Shown piece after piece: positions 46,979-55,825 of a stretch of DNA of 64,000 nt. The stretch spans positions 1,024,001-1,088,000 of the forward strand of contig CBDCSU010000006.1 of NCBI GenBank assembly GCA_965221775.1, read 5' to 3'. The stretch is from Candidatus Latescibacterota bacterium (lineage in GTDB: Bacteria; Latescibacterota; UBA2968; UBA8231). Within the stretch, counting starts at the first letter, position 1. Each line of letters starts with the position of its first letter. Under the pieces are notes generated by a model that worked only from the letters and a program-made list of their open reading frames with translations, was not told the DNA's origin and ran no database searches. The position numbers and the translations under genes were made by a program.

Positions 46979-48313
46979 ATGGAACTGAGAGACGTGCAGA
47001 AATGGGTGAAGGACGACGGCATCGAGTACTTCCTGTGCTCCTTCGTCGAGATGGGCGGCATGCCCAAGGCCAAGCTGGTGCCGGCCACCAACCTTCAGGA
47101 CATGGCCGCCGAGGGCGCCGGCTTCGCCGGCTTCGCCGCCGGCAACATGGGCCAGGGACCCCACAGCCCCGAGCTGGCCAACATGCCCGACTTCGGCCAG
47201 GGGATGATCGTGCCCTGGCGGCCCAACATGGCCTGGGTCCCCGGCAACCTCGAGGTCGAGGGCGAGCCCTTCGACTACTGCCCGCGCACCATCCTCAACC
47301 GCCAGCTCGAGCGCGCCCGCGGTCTCGGCTACCGCTTCAACGTCGGCGTCGAGGCCGAGTTCATCCTCCTCGAGCGCGACGAGGACGGCCACTTCACCAC
47401 CAGCGATCCCTTCGACACCCTCGACAAGCCGTGCTACGACCTGGTCACCCTCAACCGCAACTTCGACCTCATGACCACCCTCATCGGCCACCTGCAGGCC
47501 CTCGGCTGGGGTCCCTACGCCAACGACCACGAGGACGCCAACTGCCAGTTCGAGATCAACTGGGAGTACTCCGACGCCCTGACCACCGCCGACCGCCACA
47601 CCTTCTACCGCTGGATGGTCAAGACCATGGCCGAGGAGCGCGGCCTCCACGCCACCTTCATGCCCAAGCCTTTCGGCGACCTCACCGGCTCGGGCGCCCA
47701 CTTCCACATGAGCCTGTGGGACACCGACAACGAGACCAACCTGTTCCTCGACGACAGCGACCCCAGCGGCCTGACCCAGATGGCCTACCACTTCATGGGC
47801 GGCGTCCTGGCCCACGCCAAGGCCCTCGTGGCGGTCACCGGTCCGCTGGTCAACAGCTACAAGCGCCTCACCCGCGGCGCCCCCCGCTCCGGCGCCAGCT
47901 GGGCCCCGGTGTACGTCACCTACGGCGGCTCCAACCGCACCCAGATGATCCGCATCCCGGCCCCCGGCCGCATCGAGAACCGCTGCGTCGACGGCGCCGC
48001 CAACCCCTACCTGGCCAGCGCCGTGCTGCTGGCCGCCGGCCTCGACGGCATCGAGAACCAGACCGACCCCGGCCGCCGCAACAACGAGAACCTCTACGAG
48101 CTGACCGAGGCGGAGCTGGCCGAGCGCGGCATCGACTACCTGCCCGCCACCCTGCGCGACGCCTGCGACGCCCTGGAGCAGGACGAGGTGGTCCGCGAGG
48201 CCCTCGGCCAGGAGTACTCCGGCTACTACCTGGAGTGCAAGCGCGAGGAGTGGGGGTCCTACCACCAGGCGGTCAGCGACTGGGAGCGGGAGACCTACCT
48301 GTCGGTGTTCTGA
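46979..48313 (+). CDS. gmaS: Gamma-glutamylmethylamide synthetase (GlnT/type III GS-like)
   Basis: KAKLVPA, GAGFAGFA, NDHEDANCQFE, ATFMPKPF and NRTQMIR motifs. Located after mgdABCD. Confidence 0.85.
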   Translation: MELRDVQKWVKDDGIEYFLCSFVEMGGMPKAKLVPATNLQDMAAEGAGFAGFAAGNMGQGPHSPELANMPDFGQGMIVPWRPNMAWVPGNLEVEGEPFDYCPRTILNRQLERARGLGYRFNVGVEAEFILLERDEDGHFTTSDPFDTLDKPCYDLVTLNRNFDLMTTLIGHLQALGWGPYANDHEDANCQFEINWEYSDALTTADRHTFYRWMVKTMAEERGLHATFMPKPFGDLTGSGAHFHMSLWDTDNETNLFLDDSDPSGLTQMAYHFMGGVLAHAKALVAVTGPLVNSYKRLTRGAPRSGASWAPVYVTYGGSNRTQMIRIPAPGRIENRCVDGAANPYLASAVLLAAGLDGIENQTDPGRRNNENLYELTEAELAERGIDYLPATLRDACDALEQDEVVREALGQEYSGYYLECKREEWGSYHQAVSDWERETYLSVF

Positions 48314-48317
48314 GGTG

Positions 48318-49397
48318 TCAGGATGACCCGTCCCGGACGAACTCCGCCTGGGGCTGGTCGTCGTACGCGGCCGTCAGGGAACCGGGGCCGGGCCCGTCCT
48401 CGACCGACAGGAGATCGTTGAGCAGCAGATCCCGCTCCTGGGAGGTCACCACGGAGAAGCCGTAGTTCCGGTTGACGTGCTTGAAGGCGCCTCCCTCGGC
48501 GAGCCTCCTCTCGGCGAACTCCACGTGGCGCTGCAGCCGCTGCCGGAGATGGCGGTTCGCGAACTCCGGCAGCGACAGCAGGAGACGCCGGGCCACCGGA
48601 AGCAGCGCCGGGTCCAGCTCCACCGAGACGGCGTTGCGCCCCGCGGCGAGGGCCGCCGCCGCGGTGATGCCGGTGCCCGCGAAGGGATCCAGGACCGTGT
48701 CTCCCTTCACCGAGTGCATGCAGACCAGCCGGTAGGCCAGTTCGAAGGGGAAGGCCGCGCTCCTGCGGCGGGACGCCTCGTCGACCAGCTCCTGCCCGGC
48801 CCCCGGGATGTCGAGCCAGACGTCCGAGAACCAGACGTTCCGCTCCTCCCAGAAGAAGGCGCTCTCCCGCCGCCGGCTCTTCGCCGCGGCCGTGCCGAAC
48901 TCCCGGCGCGGCCCCTTGCGGGCGATCAGGATATACTCGTGCTCGTAGGTCACGTAGGCCCCGGCGGGCAGCATCCCCGAGCCGAGGAACTTGCTCGGCG
49001 AGTTGTTCGGCTTGCGCCAGAGGATGTCGGGCAACAGGACGAAGCCGGCGCGCAGCAGGCCGGTCAGCACCCGTGAGTGGTTGGACCACAGGCGGAAGTC
49101 CCCGTTCAGGGTGCGGGTGGCGTCGCCGATGTTGATGCAGGCGATCCCCCCCGGCCGCAGGACGCGGTGGACCTCGGCCCAGGCGGCGTCGAGTAACTGG
49201 TGCATCAACTCGAAGGCCCGGGGGCCGTCACCGGCGGCCAGGGCCTCCCCGGCGCCGGGCCTCTGGCGGCCAAAGGCCTCGTCCCACATCTCGATCATGG
49301 GATACGGCGGCGAGGTGATCACCAGGTCCACCGATCCCTCGTCGAGGAAGCCGAGGTCGGCGGCGTCGCCGGAACCTATTGTCGCGCTTGCACGCAC
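48318..49397 (-). CDS. Beta-class amino DNA methyltransferase (N4-cytosine type), orphan
   Basis: Catalytic TSPPY precedes the SAM-binding VLDPFAGTG. GGAGG ribosome-binding site immediately after the mazF stop. Confidence 0.88.
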   Translation of the reverse strand: MRASATIGSGDAADLGFLDEGSVDLVITSPPYPMIEMWDEAFGRQRPGAGEALAAGDGPRAFELMHQLLDAAWAEVHRVLRPGGIACINIGDATRTLNGDFRLWSNHSRVLTGLLRAGFVLLPDILWRKPNNSPSKFLGSGMLPAGAYVTYEHEYILIARKGPRREFGTAAAKSRRRESAFFWEERNVWFSDVWLDIPGAGQELVDEASRRRSAAFPFELAYRLVCMHSVKGDTVLDPFAGTGITAAAALAAGRNAVSVELDPALLPVARRLLLSLPEFANRHLRQRLQRHVEFAERRLAEGGAFKHVNRNYGFSVVTSQERDLLLNDLLSVEDGPGPGSLTAAYDDQPQAEFVRDGSS

Positions 49398-49407
49398 TCG
49401 GCCTCCC

Positions 49408-49780
49408 TCATGGAGGGTTCGAAGGAACCTCCACCACCAGGCCGACGGCCAGCGCGACTTCGTCCATCAGGTCACCTGGCAAGCGCCCGATTCGCTTCTC
49501 GAACCGGCTCAGATCAAGACCTCTCAACTGCAGGGCATCGACGGCGCTCTTCTTCGCCAGGCCGTTCGACGGGTCCGGCTCCACGGGTACCAGCCAGTGG
49601 TTACGCTCGAAATCGTGGCTTCCAGGCCGTGATTGGCGCCACGAGCTTGATGGGCAGTTTCCCCAGGGCGTCGGAACTGAGGACGAGTGCCGGACGTTCC
49701 TTCCGCATCTCCGCCCCCCGGGTCGGGTTCAGCTGAACTCGCCATATCTCGCCGCGCCTGGGAGCCTGCTCAGTATTCAA
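49408..49780 (-). pseudogene. mazF: MazF/PemK-family endoribonuclease toxin split by a +1 frameshift (absent from the ORF track)
   Basis: TTG start at 49780: LNTEQAPRRGEIWRVQLNPTRGAEMRKERPALVLSSDALGKLPIKLVAPITAWKPRF, TAA at 49601-49603. The +1 frame continues ERNHWLVPVEPDPSNGLAKKSAVDALQLRGLDLSRFEKRIGRLPGDLMDEVALAVGLVVEVPSNPP*. Confidence 0.88.
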
Positions 49781-50945
49781 CGAACCGCTCCCCTGCGAGG
49801 GCCTGCCAATCGGGATCAGGCTGGTAGTCCTCCGCGATGCGATCGGCCTGCTCCTTGAGATGCCGCCGTCTCTCCTCGGCGGACATGGCGATCAGGACCC
49901 TGCGTTCAACGAGAGAAGGCGCAGGTTTCTTCGACACCGCCTCCCCAAGCATCTCCTCTCCCTCTCTCGTACTCAGCACCCCCTCCGACACCGCCCGAAG
50001 GACGTTCTGCCGAAGCCACATCGGCTGCTCCGGCTCGAGTGCCATCGGCTCCCCGCGTCGCCATCCCATCTTGTTGATGTCTACGCAGCCGGACTTGTAC
50101 TGGCCTTCGCTGATGATGCCCAGATCCCTCAGTCTGTACAGAAGGGCCTGGACGCTCATCCCGTAGCGTCTCTTCAGCAACAGCAGCTCCTGCAGGTCCA
50201 CGTGCCTTCGATGTGACCCCACGTCCCGCCGTACCGCTTCGGCCGGGGCCAGCATGGCGGCACCGAAGCGAAAGGCTGTCTTCTCCTCTTCGACTCCCTC
50301 GGCCAGCCGCAACACCAGATGGCCGAGCTCATGGGTCAGGCTCAAGCGCTGCCGTTCGCCTGGCAGCCCCTTCCGGATCACCACGGCTGCACCGAGCACA
50401 CGCGCCCTGCGACCGCGGGCCACGGCGGAGATCCCATCGAAGGCGTCCGACGCCTCCACCTCGATCACGTGGATGTGATGCTCTTCGAAGGTGTCGATCA
50501 CATTGGCGATGGGATCCTCGCCAAGGCCCCATGCGGATCGCACCTTCGCCGCGGCATCCTCGGCGTCCACGACACGCTCCACGGGGATCCGTGGCACAGA
50601 GCGCGCCGGGGCCGGCGTCAGGCCCAGCACGTCCTCCAGCCTCACCCGGTCTTCCAGATGGACGGTGGTGAGGTTTTCGATCCGCTCCATCTCTCTCCGG
50701 CCCATCCGCGCCTTTCGGCGGTAGGCCCGGATGTCGACCTGGATGGGATCGGCCTCGATCAGGCGCGCGGTGGTTACCTCCAGCGCCTTCGCCATGCTGC
50801 GGAGCACGCCCTGGCTCGGACGGCTCAGGTCGCGCTCGTACTTGGACAGAGCCTGCTTCGTGACGACCCCCCCCATCTCAGCCACGCACTGGTCCATCGA
50901 CAGCCCTCGGGCCAACCGCAGTTGACGGAGCCGACTTCCAAGCAT
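49770..50945 (-). CDS. XRE HTH plus ImmA/IrrE Zn-metallopeptidase fusion with an extra C-terminal tail
   Basis: LRQLRLARGLS...TKQALSKYE HTH, R..WGLG..PI, FDG, RQRLSLTHELGH (HExxH) and A.RF..A.LAP motifs. Confidence 0.92.
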   Translation of the reverse strand: MLGSRLRQLRLARGLSMDQCVAEMGGVVTKQALSKYERDLSRPSQGVLRSMAKALEVTTARLIEADPIQVDIRAYRRKARMGRREMERIENLTTVHLEDRVRLEDVLGLTPAPARSVPRIPVERVVDAEDAAAKVRSAWGLGEDPIANVIDTFEEHHIHVIEVEASDAFDGISAVARGRRARVLGAAVVIRKGLPGERQRLSLTHELGHLVLRLAEGVEEEKTAFRFGAAMLAPAEAVRRDVGSHRRHVDLQELLLLKRRYGMSVQALLYRLRDLGIISEGQYKSGCVDINKMGWRRGEPMALEPEQPMWLRQNVLRAVSEGVLSTREGEEMLGEAVSKKPAPSLVERRVLIAMSAEERRRHLKEQADRIAEDYQPDPDWQALAGERFVEY

Positions 50946-50991
50946 CCGAACCTCTTTCTGACGATGGGTGTGTGAATCCTCGCGATGGGGG

Positions 50992-51034
50992 GCGGTTGAC
51001 AACTCTACCGAGAAACGTGAGTTGCGTCAACCGC
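50992..51034 (-). promoter_or_regulatory. Promoter and candidate operator of the XRE-IrrE/mazF/MTase unit
   Basis: TTGACG-N17-TAGAGT (51030-51002) within the inverted repeat GCGGTTGAC-AACTC...GAGTT-GC-GTCAACCGC. Confidence 0.7.
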
Positions 51035-51063
51035 ACTGTGGGGGTCCGACGAGGATCTGTGCC

Positions 51064-52767
51064 TCAGAAGGGCAGCACCGGCAGCACCAACCGCGACGGC
51101 CGCCGGGCCGAGTGGTGCACGGCGTTGGCCGCCACCGCCAGTTCCGTGTCGGCCAGGTCGTTCTTCCCGGTGTTGTGGTTGCGGTCGTGGTTGGGGAAGT
51201 CGCTCGAGGTGATCTCGAGGCGGATGCGGTGGCCGGGGTCGAAGCGGCAGGCCGTCGGCCCGAGCTGAGTCCGCACCTCCACCACCTCCCCCGGTGACAG
51301 CAGCTCCTCCACGTCGAGGGAGTTGCGGTGGCGGAGGCGCACCATGCCGTAGCAGACCTCCAGGGCCCGCCCGGGAGCGGGATGCTCGTCCACCAGGCGG
51401 GCGAAGAAGTCGGTGTCCGGGGCGGAGGAGCTGACGAAGAGCACGGCCTCCGGGTAGCCGGCGATCTCCACCGCCTCGGCCAGCGGCTCGGTGCGGTAGC
51501 AGAGGATGTCCTCGCGGTCCTCCAGCCGGCGGCGGTCCGACGGCCCCGTGAACCAGTCCTTCGTCCACAGGGTCGGCACGGGGTCGCGGGGGTCGTAGTC
51601 GAAGCGGTCCACCTCGGCGCCCCCGGCGCCGCCATCCTCGGACAGCCGCCCGGTGCCGCCGAAGCCGGCGTCACCGCTACTGCCGAGGCGGTACTCCCGA
51701 GGCGTGGTCCCGGCTGGCGGCCAGGTGTCCGCCGAGCGCCAGCGGCCCCGCTTCCCGGCCATGACGAAGTAGCGCACCGCCGGCTCGCGGTCGACGCCGT
51801 TGTCGATGCCCTTCAGCCAGCGGTCGAACCAGCGGATGATCAGGTCGGGCAGGTTGAGCCCGGCCTGGGGGCCGAAGTCGACGCCGGCCACGGCGCGGCT
51901 GCCGAGGCCCGGGTGGTTCCAGGGGCCGGCGATCAGCCGGGTCTGGGACCGCGCCTTCTCGCTGCGGCCGTTGCGCTGCATGAGCTGCAGGTGCCGCATG
52001 GAGCCGTTGCAGTGGTCGTACCAGCCGCTGAAGTCGAGGTTCGGCACCTCCACCTCGCCGTGGACTTCGCCGAGCCGCCAGGGCCGCCGGTTCGGGTGCT
52101 CGAGCCAGTCCCGGGCATACTCCGCCAGACCCGGCGGCAGGTGCCGCGGGAAGTCGAGCCAGGGCAGGTACTCGACCCAGGGGGACTCGCCGTCGGCCTC
52201 GTCCCAGTCCCGCCGGGCCTCGGCCGGCGTGTGGGGCGGCGGCAGTCCCTGCCGGCGGCGCAGGTCCGGCGCCATGGAGGTGAGCCACCACTTGATCCGC
52301 CGCCCCGGCCGGAACCCGCCCGGCCAGTCGACCTCGGTCAGCTCCAGGGGGATGGTGTAGGCGCACATCGCCGCCAGGTGCGGCGGCCGCAGGCGCGCCA
52401 GCTGCCACTGCATCCAGGCGTCGTACGAGGCTCCGAGGGTGCCCACGCGGCCGTCGCACCAAGGCTGCGCCGCCAGCCACTCCACCGAGTCGTAGCCGTC
52501 CTCGGCGTCGCCCGTGCGCTCCACGGTGAAGGGCACCCAGTCGCCCTCGGAGCCGTAGCGGCCGCGCGAGTCCATGGAGACCACGGCATACCCGGCGCGC
52601 ACGTAGCGCTCGTAGCCGCCCTTCGAGCGGCCGTACGGCGTGCGGTGCAGGATCGCCGGGAAGGGCCCCCCGGCGTCGGGGCGGAAGAGGTGGGCCTCCA
52701 GGCGGACCCCGTCGCGCATGGGGACGCGCACGTCGGCCTCGGTGTGGATCCCGAGGGCACCGCTCAT
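51064..52767 (-). CDS. CocE/NonD family serine hydrolase
   Basis: VPMRDGVRL, RTPY, RGRYGSEG, GASY, GWYD, GPWNH and SSDFP motifs. Confidence 0.92.
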   Translation of the reverse strand: MSGALGIHTEADVRVPMRDGVRLEAHLFRPDAGGPFPAILHRTPYGRSKGGYERYVRAGYAVVSMDSRGRYGSEGDWVPFTVERTGDAEDGYDSVEWLAAQPWCDGRVGTLGASYDAWMQWQLARLRPPHLAAMCAYTIPLELTEVDWPGGFRPGRRIKWWLTSMAPDLRRRQGLPPPHTPAEARRDWDEADGESPWVEYLPWLDFPRHLPPGLAEYARDWLEHPNRRPWRLGEVHGEVEVPNLDFSGWYDHCNGSMRHLQLMQRNGRSEKARSQTRLIAGPWNHPGLGSRAVAGVDFGPQAGLNLPDLIIRWFDRWLKGIDNGVDREPAVRYFVMAGKRGRWRSADTWPPAGTTPREYRLGSSGDAGFGGTGRLSEDGGAGGAEVDRFDYDPRDPVPTLWTKDWFTGPSDRRRLEDREDILCYRTEPLAEAVEIAGYPEAVLFVSSSAPDTDFFARLVDEHPAPGRALEVCYGMVRLRHRNSLDVEELLSPGEVVEVRTQLGPTACRFDPGHRIRLEITSSDFPNHDRNHNTGKNDLADTELAVAANAVHHSARRPSRLVLPVLPF

Positions 52768-53074
52768 CGCATCGGCTCCGTGCTCGGATGGCTGGTCAAC
52801 CGCGGTGAATGGCGCGGCTTCCGCTCGTTCGCCCGGGCTGCAGCCGAGGCCCGCACGCCAAGGCGTTGCCGCGCAGCCGGTCGAATCACCTCTCAGGCCG
52901 GCCGCTGCCCGCACGCTAGGGCGGTTCCTCGCGCCCGGTCAAATCCCATGCGATCACCTTCGCGGGCGCCTCGGTGCTCGCGCGGCAACCCTTCCGCCCC
53001 TGGCAGATGACGAAAGGCCTGAGTTAGTTCTTGGTGTCCGCGCCCTGGCACTCCCTCCTCCGAAGAGACCCGCT

Positions 53075-55825
53075 ATGCGCCCCTTCCCGACCTCCCGGAT
53101 CTCCACCCTCCTGAGCCTGCTCGCCGCCGGCGCCGTCTCCGCCCAGGACTACGACGCCGACTATCCGCCCGGCACCCTGACCCCCACCATCGACCTGGGT
53201 CTGCAGAAGGTCGAGATCGAGGTGCCGGAGAAGTACCGCGACCGAGTCCCCGAGGGCCTGAGTGTCAACCTGCCGCCGGGCTTCCGTGCCCGGCTCTTCG
53301 CCGTGGTTCCGGGAGGTCCGCGGGACCTGCAGTTCAGCCCCGAAGGCGTGCTCCACGCCGTCACGCGGCGGGGCCAGGTCATGGCCCTGCCCGACCGCGA
53401 CGGCGACGGCGTCGCCGACGAGGAGACCGTCGTCCTCGGCGGACTGCGGACCTGCGACGCTCTGGCGTTCTACAAGGGGGAGATGTACGTCGGCGAGGAG
53501 CACCAGGTGATCCGGGCCATCGACGCCGACGGCGACGGCCTCTACGAGGAGACCGAGGTCCTCGTCGCCGACCTGCCCTACGAGGCCTGGCACGACACCA
53601 AGACGATCGTCTTCGACGAACAGAACGAGAAGCTCTACGTCAGCGTCGGCTCTCCCTGCGACCTGTGCCGCATGGAGCCCGGGCACCAGTTCGCCGGCGC
53701 CAGCACCACGGACGTGCTTCCCTACCGCCCCGAGCGCGGCACCGTCATGGAGTTCAACGCCGACGGCACGGGAGGACGCATCTTCGTCACCGGGGTGCGC
53801 AACGTCGTCGGCATGGACCTGCACCCGGTCACCAACGAGCTGTGGGGCACCAACAACGGCCACGACGAGGAGGGCCGCTCCCGCCCCCCGGAGTGGATCG
53901 ACGTGCTGCGCGACGGCGACTTCCAGGGCTACCCCTTCGTGCAGAGCCACCAGGTCTGGAACGACTTCACCATCTCCCGCTACCACCCGATGCTGCCGAT
54001 CACGCGCGAGGACACGCTGCTGGCGATGACCCAGAAGAAGCCGGCGGTCCTGGTGCCGGCGCACTGGGCGCCGATGCGCATCCACTTCTACACGGGCCAG
54101 CAGTTCCCCGCGAGGTACCGCAACGCCGCCTTCGTCGCCTTCCGCGCCGGCCGCGCCAAGCTCTCCTCCCACCCCGGGTACAAGGTGCAGGCCCTGTTCA
54201 GCGACCCCGACGGCTCCGAGGCCGTCATGGCCGACTTCGTCACCGGCTTCCAGACGGGAACCACCACCAGCAGCGTCTGGGGCTTCCCCCACGGCATCGC
54301 CAGCGACGCGGAGGGCAGCCTCTACGTCGGCAGCGACAACCGCACCACCGTGATCCTCAAGATCACCCACAGCCAGCTGCAGGGGGTCTGGGAGCACGAC
54401 CTGCCGGAGTCGGTCGGCCTCGCCGGGCGGGTGACGCTGCGCGGCACCGTGCGCCTCGAGCGCCTGGCGGAGGGCGGTGAGGAGCCGCGGGTGACCGCCG
54501 ACCTGAGCGCCCTCGGCGGTCCCGCCGAGGTGGAGCTGACGCCCCTGGGCGACGGGGAGTACGGCCTCGAGGTCGAGCTCGTCGCCGGCGAGGTCGGCCG
54601 CCGCGACATCGTCATCCGCGTCGAGCAGCGGGCCGGGGAGCGCACCGAGTCGCTGCGCTTCGCCAGCACCGTGTACGTCCTGCCCCCGATCTGGAGCCAC
54701 GACCTGCCCGCCGGCCTGACCCTCGGGGATCCCCTGGAGCTGCGGGCCACGGTGCGCATCGAGCCGCTGTCCGCCGACGGCGCGGACCCGCGGGTCACGG
54801 CGGACCTGTCGGCCATGGGCGGTCCTGCCGACGTGCCGTTGAGCCCGGCCGGCGGTGACGCGTACTCGCTGCGGGCCGTCGTCGACCTCGACGTGCCCCC
54901 CGGCACCTACCCGGTCCTCGTGCGCTTCGAGCAGGAGGTGGGGGGCGTCGTCTTCCGCCACGAGTTCCGCCACGACGTGGTGCTCTCGCCGCCCGACCTG
55001 CCGATCCTCGACGACGGCCTCGCCGGCGGCTGGCAGCTCCTCGGCGAGCAGGGCGCGCAGATCGTCGGTCCGACGGAGGCGGGACCCGTCTTCAACGGCC
55101 GCGAGTCGCTGGAGCTGCACCTGCAGCCCGAGAACTTCTGGACCCTCTGGCGGGCCACCGTGGTGCCGCCCTCCCCCGTGGACATCCAGGGCTTCGCCGG
55201 CCTGCGTCTCGTCCTCCACGCCGGCGCCGCCGCCATGCCCGGTCCCGCGGCCCTGTCGGTGGTCGTCGACGATCTCTCCGTCGACCTGCTGCGCCCGCCG
55301 TACGAGGTCGTCCCCGGAGACCCGGGGTGGCAGGTCGTGGAGATCGACTTCGACGCCTTCACCGTGGAGAACAGGTACGGCGGCCAGGACCGTATCGTCG
55401 AGGAGGTCGACGCGATCGTGCTTCGCGGCTCCATGGCCGGCACCCTCTACCTGGACGACGTGCGTCTCGTCACCCGCATCCCGGCGGCGCCCCCGGAGCC
55501 GCCGGAGGCGACCTCGGTGAGCGTGAGCCCCGACGACGGAGCGCCGCGGGCCTACTCGCTGGGTCCGAGCTACCCGAACCCCTTCAACGCCGGGACCGTG
55601 GTGCTCTTCGACCTGCCCGAGGCCGCCGAGGCCCGGCTGTCCGTGTACAACCTCGCCGGGCAGCGGGTCGTGGAGCTGGTCAGCGGCCGCCGCGAGGCCG
55701 GCACCCACCGCGTGAGCTGGGACGGGCGCGATGGGTCGGGAGGAGCGCTGGCTTCGGGGGTGTACCTGGTGCGCCTGACCGCCGGGAGCTGGATCGGCAC
55801 GGAGAAGCTGTTGCTGCTGCGCTGA
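53075..55825 (+). CDS. Secreted glucose/sorbosone dehydrogenase-like beta-propeller with two Ig-like repeats, a CBM-like domain and an FlgD/Ig C-terminal domain
   Basis: Signal peptide, LYVSVGS, GVRNVVG, GYP and H.AP motifs, duplicated VTADLSA(L/M)GG unit, LYLDDVRL, and YPNPFN...WDGRD..G..LASGVY. Confidence 0.82.
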   Translation: MRPFPTSRISTLLSLLAAGAVSAQDYDADYPPGTLTPTIDLGLQKVEIEVPEKYRDRVPEGLSVNLPPGFRARLFAVVPGGPRDLQFSPEGVLHAVTRRGQVMALPDRDGDGVADEETVVLGGLRTCDALAFYKGEMYVGEEHQVIRAIDADGDGLYEETEVLVADLPYEAWHDTKTIVFDEQNEKLYVSVGSPCDLCRMEPGHQFAGASTTDVLPYRPERGTVMEFNADGTGGRIFVTGVRNVVGMDLHPVTNELWGTNNGHDEEGRSRPPEWIDVLRDGDFQGYPFVQSHQVWNDFTISRYHPMLPITREDTLLAMTQKKPAVLVPAHWAPMRIHFYTGQQFPARYRNAAFVAFRAGRAKLSSHPGYKVQALFSDPDGSEAVMADFVTGFQTGTTTSSVWGFPHGIASDAEGSLYVGSDNRTTVILKITHSQLQGVWEHDLPESVGLAGRVTLRGTVRLERLAEGGEEPRVTADLSALGGPAEVELTPLGDGEYGLEVELVAGEVGRRDIVIRVEQRAGERTESLRFASTVYVLPPIWSHDLPAGLTLGDPLELRATVRIEPLSADGADPRVTADLSAMGGPADVPLSPAGGDAYSLRAVVDLDVPPGTYPVLVRFEQEVGGVVFRHEFRHDVVLSPPDLPILDDGLAGGWQLLGEQGAQIVGPTEAGPVFNGRESLELHLQPENFWTLWRATVVPPSPVDIQGFAGLRLVLHAGAAAMPGPAALSVVVDDLSVDLLRPPYEVVPGDPGWQVVEIDFDAFTVENRYGGQDRIVEEVDAIVLRGSMAGTLYLDDVRLVTRIPAAPPEPPEATSVSVSPDDGAPRAYSLGPSYPNPFNAGTVVLFDLPEAAEARLSVYNLAGQRVVELVSGRREAGTHRVSWDGRDGSGGALASGVYLVRLTAGSWIGTEKLLLLR

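Follow-up and report, generated by a model that had tools for sequence, protein, structure and literature searches.

Antitoxins in which an XRE helix-turn-helix (HTH) is combined with an ImmA-type peptidase, and which occur with varied toxins, are described as RosmerTA or ImmA-hub systems (bioRxiv 10.1101/2022.05.11.491447; PMC10440598); here and below, published systems are cited from the portions of the papers that were compared. A deletion of rmrA was reported as not obtainable (bioRxiv 10.1101/2022.05.11.491447). NetFlax places the ImmA-protease antitoxins in a hub, D25, whose members often carry an N-terminal HTH and face various toxins, including PIN-like ones, and a mechanism based on HTH cleavage was suggested (PMC10440598). 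Makarova, Wolf and Koonin (2009; PMC2701414) described COG2856-Xre fusions beside toxins of the PIN and RelE types, for which they predicted a more complex toxin-antitoxin circuit under protease control. In S. pneumoniae, the toxin of the Rosmer-type pair RipAB acts on the sliding clamp (bioRxiv 10.1101/2025.09.02.673660). In this work, we analysed a locus where an antitoxin of this type precedes a mazF gene. It occupies positions 48,318-51,034 of a 64,000-nt stretch of DNA (the window, whose positions are used as coordinates throughout) from Candidatus Latescibacterota bacterium, assembly GCA_965221775.1, contig CBDCSU010000006.1, 1,024,001-1,088,000 of the forward strand, and comprises genes for an XRE-M78 regulator, a MazF/PemK toxin and a DNA methylase.

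We consider it likely that this region holds a type II toxin-antitoxin cassette with two genes, of the RosmerTA/ImmA-hub kind, in which the endoribonuclease MazF is the toxin, held in check by a C-terminal tail of the regulator and probably set free by its protease domain as a switch, and that the cassette was inserted here, its mazF having decayed and the adjacent methylase being unrelated to it.

The regulator-mazF pair and its operator

A first-pass annotation of this DNA had described three co-oriented, tightly coupled genes behind one promoter, and this layout was recovered. The regulator, mazF and the methylase all lie on the minus strand; mazF (49408..49780) starts with a TTG codon and overlaps the end of the regulator gene, stop codon included, by 11 nt, and its TGA stop (49408-49410) is directly followed by a stretch resembling a ribosome-binding site (GGGAGG, 49402-49407). 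The lack of a separate MazE-type gene and of a nearby restriction enzyme, likewise pointed out earlier, also held: according to the list of open reading frames (ORFs), none of the former type fits between the genes, and the locus is flanked by a gene of the glutamine-synthetase type and one for an S15 (X-Pro dipeptidyl) peptidase.

The pair was then followed across genomes. A protein search with the regulator gave 1123 matches at E<=0.001 among 7999 candidates scored, and a pattern scan in which each species was represented by one genome gave 262 loci with a regulator relative, the best 80 of which were examined, their content being assigned by tblastn with pieces of the window. MazF was found directly downstream of the XRE-M78 gene in 75 of the 80 loci, in answer to the neighbourhood survey that the first-pass annotation had proposed. 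In the other five, the contig ends 77 bp past the regulator (L015), a short N-terminal mazF remnant alone is left (L078), no MazF-like ORF was seen after the regulator (L010, L077), or the downstream ORFs are nucleotidyltransferase-like and HEPN-like, as judged by eye (L068). With mazF starts picked by a heuristic, the overlap between regulator stop and mazF start was 11 nt in 36 of the 75 loci, 20 nt in 10 and 8 nt in 9, and TTG was the start chosen in 57. The species span Poribacteria, Nitrospirota, Chloroflexota, Acidobacteriota, Planctomycetota, Omnitrophota, Cyanobacteria, Verrucomicrobiota and others, mostly uncultured lineages; the one cultured organism among the 80 loci, Oscillochloris trichoides DG6 (L031), has an intact pair. 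These data support the view that the XRE-M78 regulator and MazF form a conserved two-gene unit with the antitoxin gene first.

Upstream of the regulator, the promoter scan revealed a -35 box TTGACG (51030-51025) and a -10 box TAGAGT (51007-51002) on the minus strand, separated by a 17-nt spacer. Both are enclosed by an inverted repeat (50992..51034), GCGGTTGAC / GTCAACCGC, whose arms at 50992-51000 and 51026-51034 match perfectly over 9 bp, just as a single promoter within an inverted repeat had been claimed. No other promoter-like site was found in 48000-51400 (the mean in shuffled sequences is 0.2). Of the sampled words, fractions of only 0.11 and 0.05 occur in the RNA runs X19 and X20. The Shine-Dalgarno sequence AAGAGG, read from the sequence at 50951..50956 (minus strand), stands 5 nt ahead of the ATG at 50945, where the family N-terminus and the modal length of 391 aa also begin, so this ATG is most likely the true start. 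The longest regulator ORF (49770..51002) opens with a TTG, which was rejected as the start because it sits inside the -10 box and the family N-terminus begins at the ATG.

In the register of the family, the operator reads GTTGAC-N25-GTCAAC, and its longer form, GGTTGAC-N25-GTCAACC, covers the -35 and -10 boxes; in the window the palindrome arms are written GGTTGACAA-N-TTGTCAACC and make up a putative target of the regulator HTH. Of the loci, 77 have 100 nt or more of sequence ahead of the regulator, and in these the 160 nt before the gene were scanned. GTTGAC-N24-26-GTCAAC was found in 49 of them, in comparison with 27 of 1600 windows of 160 nt drawn at random from these loci, and 42 of the 49 share the 25-nt spacer of the window. 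In the relatives' loci the left arm carries a -35 box, TTGACA, and the right arm comes after the -10 box. A conserved palindromic operator thus spans the regulator's own promoter. Pair, start overlap and operator all recur in many phyla, which is more than chance would give. A number of Poribacteria loci (L009, L012, L016, L021, L025, L050, L065 and others), belonging to the 28 loci without the exact palindrome, have another conserved sequence in place of the palindrome in their 110-nt upstream region, and the control of the pair in that lineage may differ from the palindrome type.

No phage carriage was found among 50,697 phage records at E<=1e-20. Viral contigs gave three distant regulator relatives only (28-29% identity), and plasmid records gave 37 matches, all below 60% identity; the 15 of them that were listed cover residues 1 to 337-339 and do not include the tail. 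Carriage of the tail-bearing subfamily by phages or plasmids was therefore set aside after the phage, viral-contig and plasmid searches.

The peptidase and the predicted MazF-binding tail of the regulator

The regulator gene (49770..50945, minus strand) encodes an RmrA-like protein of 391 aa according to Pfam, PADLOC, sequence alignment, AlphaFold2 (AF2) and Foldseek. Pfam recognizes HTH_3 (E 6.3e-11) and Peptidase_M78 (E 2.5e-8) in it. Fourteen PADLOC RmrA profiles match (best E 1.6e-43), with capP and capH weaker, and the RmrA matches stop near residue 330-350, leaving the tail uncovered; the match to the NCBIfam model 'spr1629 family repressor/antitoxin' is under its cut-off (80 vs 335 bits). 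The best 120 of the 1123 homologues are 47-99% identical to the regulator, the majority being exactly 391 aa long. Two alignments were made, A1 with 26 members and a second with 43 members from the genome loci. In both, H205, E206 and H209 of the zinc-binding/catalytic motif HELGH (residues 205-209; 50319..50333, minus strand) are invariant, as are many of the last 60 positions. A linker strand at residues 69-77, including A74-Y75-R76, is conserved. No separate XRE repressor is present among the ORFs of the cassette, the HTH and the peptidase being fused in the regulator. By sequence, the protein thus belongs to the RmrA type and, within it, to a subfamily that is large and sharply delimited.

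The AF2 monomer (mean predicted local distance difference test, pLDDT, 85.3; predicted template-modelling score 0.78) comprises an HTH at about residues 1-63, a strand and a long helix at 69-106, a peptidase core at about 120-295 and helices at 310-333. These are followed by a low-confidence linker, two helices at 345-373 and an acidic, Trp-containing end below pLDDT 50; along the tail, the confidence drops to 57 and then to 36-55. The best Foldseek matches in the PDB were CapP (7t5t, E 4e-4) and IrrE (3dti, E 6.4e-4), and the N-terminus matched HTH domains of the SinR type.

The C-terminal extension (residues 335-391; 49773..49943, minus strand) is the predicted MazF-binding, that is, antitoxin segment. 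Neither this segment nor the last 96 residues matched any Pfam family at E<=10, and against PDB chains the tail gave nothing better than E 0.75, so that a sequence kinship with MazE or with any solved chain was rejected on the Pfam and PDB searches. The tail-bearing proteins were compared with tail-less paralogues. A second XRE-M78 copy in the same genome (L002, G000:C6:1645163-1648984; gene at 1207-2334 of that locus, minus strand) is 375 aa long, 27-29% identical and without the tail; the next ORF there gave a sub-threshold PIN match (E 0.0022, 19 vs 23.6 bits), and this locus is probably a second Rosmer-like pair. In the related genome G007, the ORF after a further tail-less copy (L098, 359 aa) has no match in Pfam, and neither of the two copies is followed by MazF. 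A tail-less relative on a Mesorhizobium plasmid precedes an annotated PIN gene. These comparisons support the tail as a probable specific feature of the MazF-paired subfamily.

The first-pass annotation had also proposed modelling a MazF dimer with the regulator. The model obtained, of the MazF dimer with the tail residues of the regulator, supports binding. For an intact cognate pair (L026), two copies of MazF and regulator residues 335-391 were modelled, each with an alignment of 43 rows. All three runs scored 0.85, a mark reached by 58 of 80 solved complexes vs 2 of 110 mismatched pairs, and the best of three controls scored 0.00; the contacts agreed between the runs to at least 96%, and the pLDDT of the partner was at least 82. 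In the model, the tail lies across the active sites of the dimer and contacts MazF residues 28, 30, 50 and 52 of both copies. Of these positions, R30 is invariant in 43 MazF homologues and T52 is conserved in at least 90%; we take them to be the catalytic Arg and Thr by analogy with MazF of E. coli and B. subtilis. The closest solved chain to this MazF is M. tuberculosis MazF9 (6kyt, E 7.3e-17), and EndoA and Kid were also matched. The tail probably binds MazF over the active sites, as supported, not demonstrated, by the model.

Taken together, the adjacency of the genes, the model of the tail complex and the conserved operator lend good support to the earlier suggestion that one polypeptide serves as both repressor and antitoxin. 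We propose that the XRE HTH would bind the palindrome across the -35 and -10 boxes, thereby repressing the operon, and that the last ~57 residues of the regulator would lie over the MazF dimer, covering both active sites and silencing the toxin. The intact M78 peptidase is the likely switch: by analogy with ImmA/ImmR, IrrE/DdrO and CapP/CapH, a signal would make the regulator cut itself or a sister molecule. This signal might be DNA damage, as envisaged in the first-pass annotation, or phage infection. Such cleavage would lift the repression and release or destabilize the tail, whereupon MazF would cut RNA and growth would stop. That a single polypeptide unites all three roles, namely autorepressor, signal-sensing zinc protease and toxin-binding antitoxin, so that trigger-induced self-cleavage both derepresses the operon and releases MazF, and that this represents a widespread, undescribed MazF-type branch of Rosmer-like systems, is a proposal which we advance tentatively.

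The peptidase could act in other ways. It might cut the HTH part only, in the way CapP cuts CapH, and raise expression of the operon. The tail would then remain on MazF, and release of the toxin would need another route, such as degradation of the antitoxin by host proteases, known from classical MazEF. The nearest folds, CapP and IrrE, act on repressors, the operator over the promoter is conserved, and the antitoxin action of RipAB is reported to depend on ClpX (bioRxiv 10.1101/2025.09.02.673660). A purely transcriptional switch would, however, leave unexplained why a protease, and not a plain XRE repressor, carries the MazF-specific tail, and we regard it as unlikely. The regulator might instead degrade MazF, with the tail merely recruiting the substrate, as an intact and invariant HExxH and a tail predicted to hold MazF would allow. 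Yet a tail placed over both active sites, as in the model, would suffice for inhibition. MazE-type antitoxins inhibit in the same manner, by covering the MazF sites in the solved MazEF complexes. Furthermore, none of the M78 members in the compared portions of the literature degrades a toxin, and enzymatic neutralization thus appears quite improbable next to inhibition by the tail.

Probable decay of mazF and insertion beside a resident methylase

In the window, mazF is split. The Pfam profile PemK_toxin, like the family profile, matches both pieces, an N-terminal one at 49601..49780 (profile positions 1-47, E 7.2e-13) and a C-terminal one at 49408..49584 (positions 64-107, E 2.3e-5), which lie in different frames of the minus strand. 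Intact homologues read through the break as W-K-P-x-F-x-x-N-x-W, whereas the window requires a shift of frame in a coding TTT (AAA on the plus strand, 49609..49611), where it has one base more than the intact relatives. To check this site, the Logan contigs of four runs were aligned to the region: X1, the probable source sample, and X5, X7 and X13, which come from three other studies (X5 being a sponge metagenome). The X1 contigs equal the window with zero differences, the extra base included. X5, X7 and X13 each have one contig with one base fewer at 49610, and those of X7 and X13, in which one and two further letters, respectively, deviate from the window, span the mazF-methylase junction; the strains concerned therefore share the insertion and have a mazF frame unbroken at that site. 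A programmed frameshift was rejected, since the additional base is missing from near-identical contigs of three other studies and the frame continues without a break in intact homologues. The toxin is probably dead in this genome while the regulator is intact; one other MazF-like gene is present in the genome, a distant one (E 8.4e-7).

Two further differences were seen in these runs. The X5 contig is also without one base at 49714, in a six-C run of the N-terminal part of mazF, which may be either a second independent lesion or a homopolymer error. In X7, two single contigs join 49397 to 49737 and 49371 to 49748, respectively, which would delete most of mazF. Each joint is seen in a single contig whose shorter arm has just 30 letters and which may come from another organism, and both were set aside as too weak to indicate mazF loss.

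Among the relatives, full-length mazF ORFs of 115-126 aa were present in 64 of the 72 complete loci (three of the 75 run off the contig), and in the other eight a damaged mazF stands beside a whole regulator. Two of these carry frameshifts (L020, L034), five carry in-frame stops (L025, L036, L056, L069, L072), nonsense codons being a type of damage that assembly errors rarely make, and one (L076) is degenerate, with both active-site positions substituted. Repeated loss of mazF with the regulator kept is the pattern expected for a toxin and its antidote. It bears on another explanation, namely that the regulator is a transcription factor of a mobile element with no toxin-antitoxin relation to MazF, which would be controlled otherwise. 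In its favour, the relation is seen in gene data and a model. Against such a reading stand the strict adjacency with overlapping frames in many phyla, the lack of room for another ORF, a subfamily-specific tail for which the complex model supports binding, and this repeated inactivation of mazF beside a retained regulator, and we find it very improbable.

The cassette, consisting of promoter, regulator and mazF, was delimited by blastn break points and junction alignments to approx. 49373..51072 (~1.7 kb). Two genomes of the same genus, G002 and G007, are collinear with the window on both flanks at 89-97% identity and have 37 nt in place of 49373-51072. In them the TGA stop of the S15 peptidase gene and the GTG start of the methylase overlap as GTGA, and neither a regulator nor a mazF gene intervenes. 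The shared sequence stops at ...GGTGCTG (~51073) and restarts at GGCGACGCC (~49372). The absence of intervening genes at this site in the sister genomes indicates that the cassette is a ~1.7-kb insertion into the overlap of the S15 peptidase and methylase genes. In a third sister genome (G006, L095 3172-6361, contig G006:C1), the same junction holds ~3.4 kb with an HD-domain gene, two ORFs without Pfam matches and a Mutator-family transposase, and insertions at this junction seem to be recurrent in the genus.

The methylase (48318..49397, minus strand) is of the beta class with an SPPY motif (N6_N4_Mtase E 2e-35; PADLOC MTase_II E 2.3e-135), and its closest solved relative is 2zie (E 1.4e-30). 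From the SPPY motif, we presume it to be an N4-cytosine or N6-adenine methylase. The first-pass annotation had treated it as a third component leaving a linked methylation mark. The arrangement in the window could suggest so: the gap after mazF is 10 nt, the GGGAGG within it, 4 nt ahead of the GTG start at 49397, makes a good ribosome-binding site, and, as no terminator-like site was found in 48000-51400, the methylase is probably co-transcribed here. This claim did not survive the comparison of genomes. The methylase follows the pair in none of the 80 loci, and it is present in 19 of the 30 relatives' genomes compared (56-88% identity), including nine of nine genomes of one genus in the sister family, while no regulator orthologue above 42% identity occurs in any of the 30. 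At the same site in G002 and G007, the methylase and the S15 peptidase gene overlap, and the GAGGG-like stretch before the methylase start aligns with sequence already there. A third component was rejected on the locus survey, the sister-genome junction and the wider distribution, and a three-gene system is scarcely credible. Nor was a restriction-modification pairing seen: no restriction gene is adjacent, and the methylase and the regulator are each conserved without the other. Judged from these alignments, the methylase is a resident orphan gene unrelated to the cassette.

Farther along, the ORF list contains a 1061-aa ORF at 52640-55825 (plus strand), whose C-terminal ~80 residues, by eye, resemble a secretion-system sorting or FlgD-Ig-like domain.

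Relation to known systems and significance

The locus shares with MazEF, PemIK and Kid-Kis a MazF/PemK toxin with conserved Arg and Thr positions, an upstream antitoxin gene with a frame overlap and, by prediction, a C-terminal antitoxin segment on the MazF dimer. It differs from them in that the upstream gene encodes an XRE-M78 protein and not a MazE/PemI-type antitoxin of the AbrB/SpoVT or ribbon-helix-helix (RHH) kind, in that a zinc peptidase stands between the DNA-binding part and the tail, and in that the toxin gene of this genome is split by the extra base at 49609-49611. With ImmA/ImmR, IrrE(PprI)/DdrO and CapP/CapH it has in common the M78 peptidase fold with HExxH and an XRE repressor with a palindromic operator at the promoter; here, in contrast, peptidase and repressor are one polypeptide, and the cargo under control would be a toxin that the same protein is predicted to bind. 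IrrE differs further, as the regulator model shows helices only after the peptidase core; the GAF-like domain which we take IrrE to possess was not seen in that model.

The closest likeness is to RosmerTA: one antitoxin uniting an XRE HTH and an ImmA/IrrE-type HExxH peptidase, a two-gene operon, an adjacent toxin gene, and membership of an antitoxin family that, in the literature compared, pairs with many unrelated toxins. The toxins named in that literature are PIN-like, RelE or of unknown fold, whereas here the toxin is MazF/PemK; moreover, the present subfamily has the 57-residue C-terminal extension, predicted to bind the toxin, and a fixed gene order with the antitoxin first. The COG2856-Xre fusions have the same fused architecture in an operon with a classical toxin, their partners being PIN and RelE instead of MazF (PMC2701414). 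The partners of MazF in the same paper are AbrB, RHH, MazF/ccd and XF1863, and a COG2856-MazF pairing is absent from its tables as compared (PMC2701414). A full-text literature search gave no description of a COG2856/RmrA-type antitoxin with MazF, the supplementary tables, such as NetFlax Dataset S1, lying outside this search and possibly holding such an edge.

Several points weigh against the proposed cassette and its mechanism. The exact palindrome is missing in 28 of the 77 loci. The complex was modelled with custom alignments and three chains, unlike the calibration set, and MazE-MazF complexes are already among the solved structures, so that the passing score may partly be a memory of peptide placement or of the toxin groove. 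In the RosmerTA literature as compared, one RmrA-RmrT complex could not be modelled, and neither the mode of neutralization by RmrA nor the substrate of the peptidase is established (PMC10440598). MazF, searched as two intact homologues and the window pieces, matches none of the PADLOC families, so it is not an RmrT by those models; as RmrT toxins are diverse, the missing match weakens the membership in the database sense and not the likeness. Finally, the extra base in mazF was seen only in X1, and the frameshift is either recent and strain-specific or an error that two assemblies, built from one set of reads, have in common.

The concept of a protease-repressor antitoxin is not new; the MazF pairing is a variant of it, widespread in uncultured phyla and with a distinctive tail and operator. 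In the literature compared, the questions raised by RosmerTA concern the substrate of the peptidase and the way in which the toxin is restrained, and its toxins are mostly of unknown fold. MazF is the best-understood toxin, the tail is short and separable and the operator is clear, which makes this pair a convenient model for the protease-switch idea. The window also records the life cycle of a cassette, from a precise insertion into overlapping genes, through the same insertion in near-identical strains, to the decay of the toxin with the antitoxin intact. For this genome, the outcome is an ordinary one, a selfish cassette that has decayed next to an orphan methylase resident at the site. For the family, if the proposed mechanism is true, the pair would be the first case tractable enough for both the mode of neutralization and the substrate of an RmrA-type peptidase to be read from structure, with a classical enzyme and known assays.

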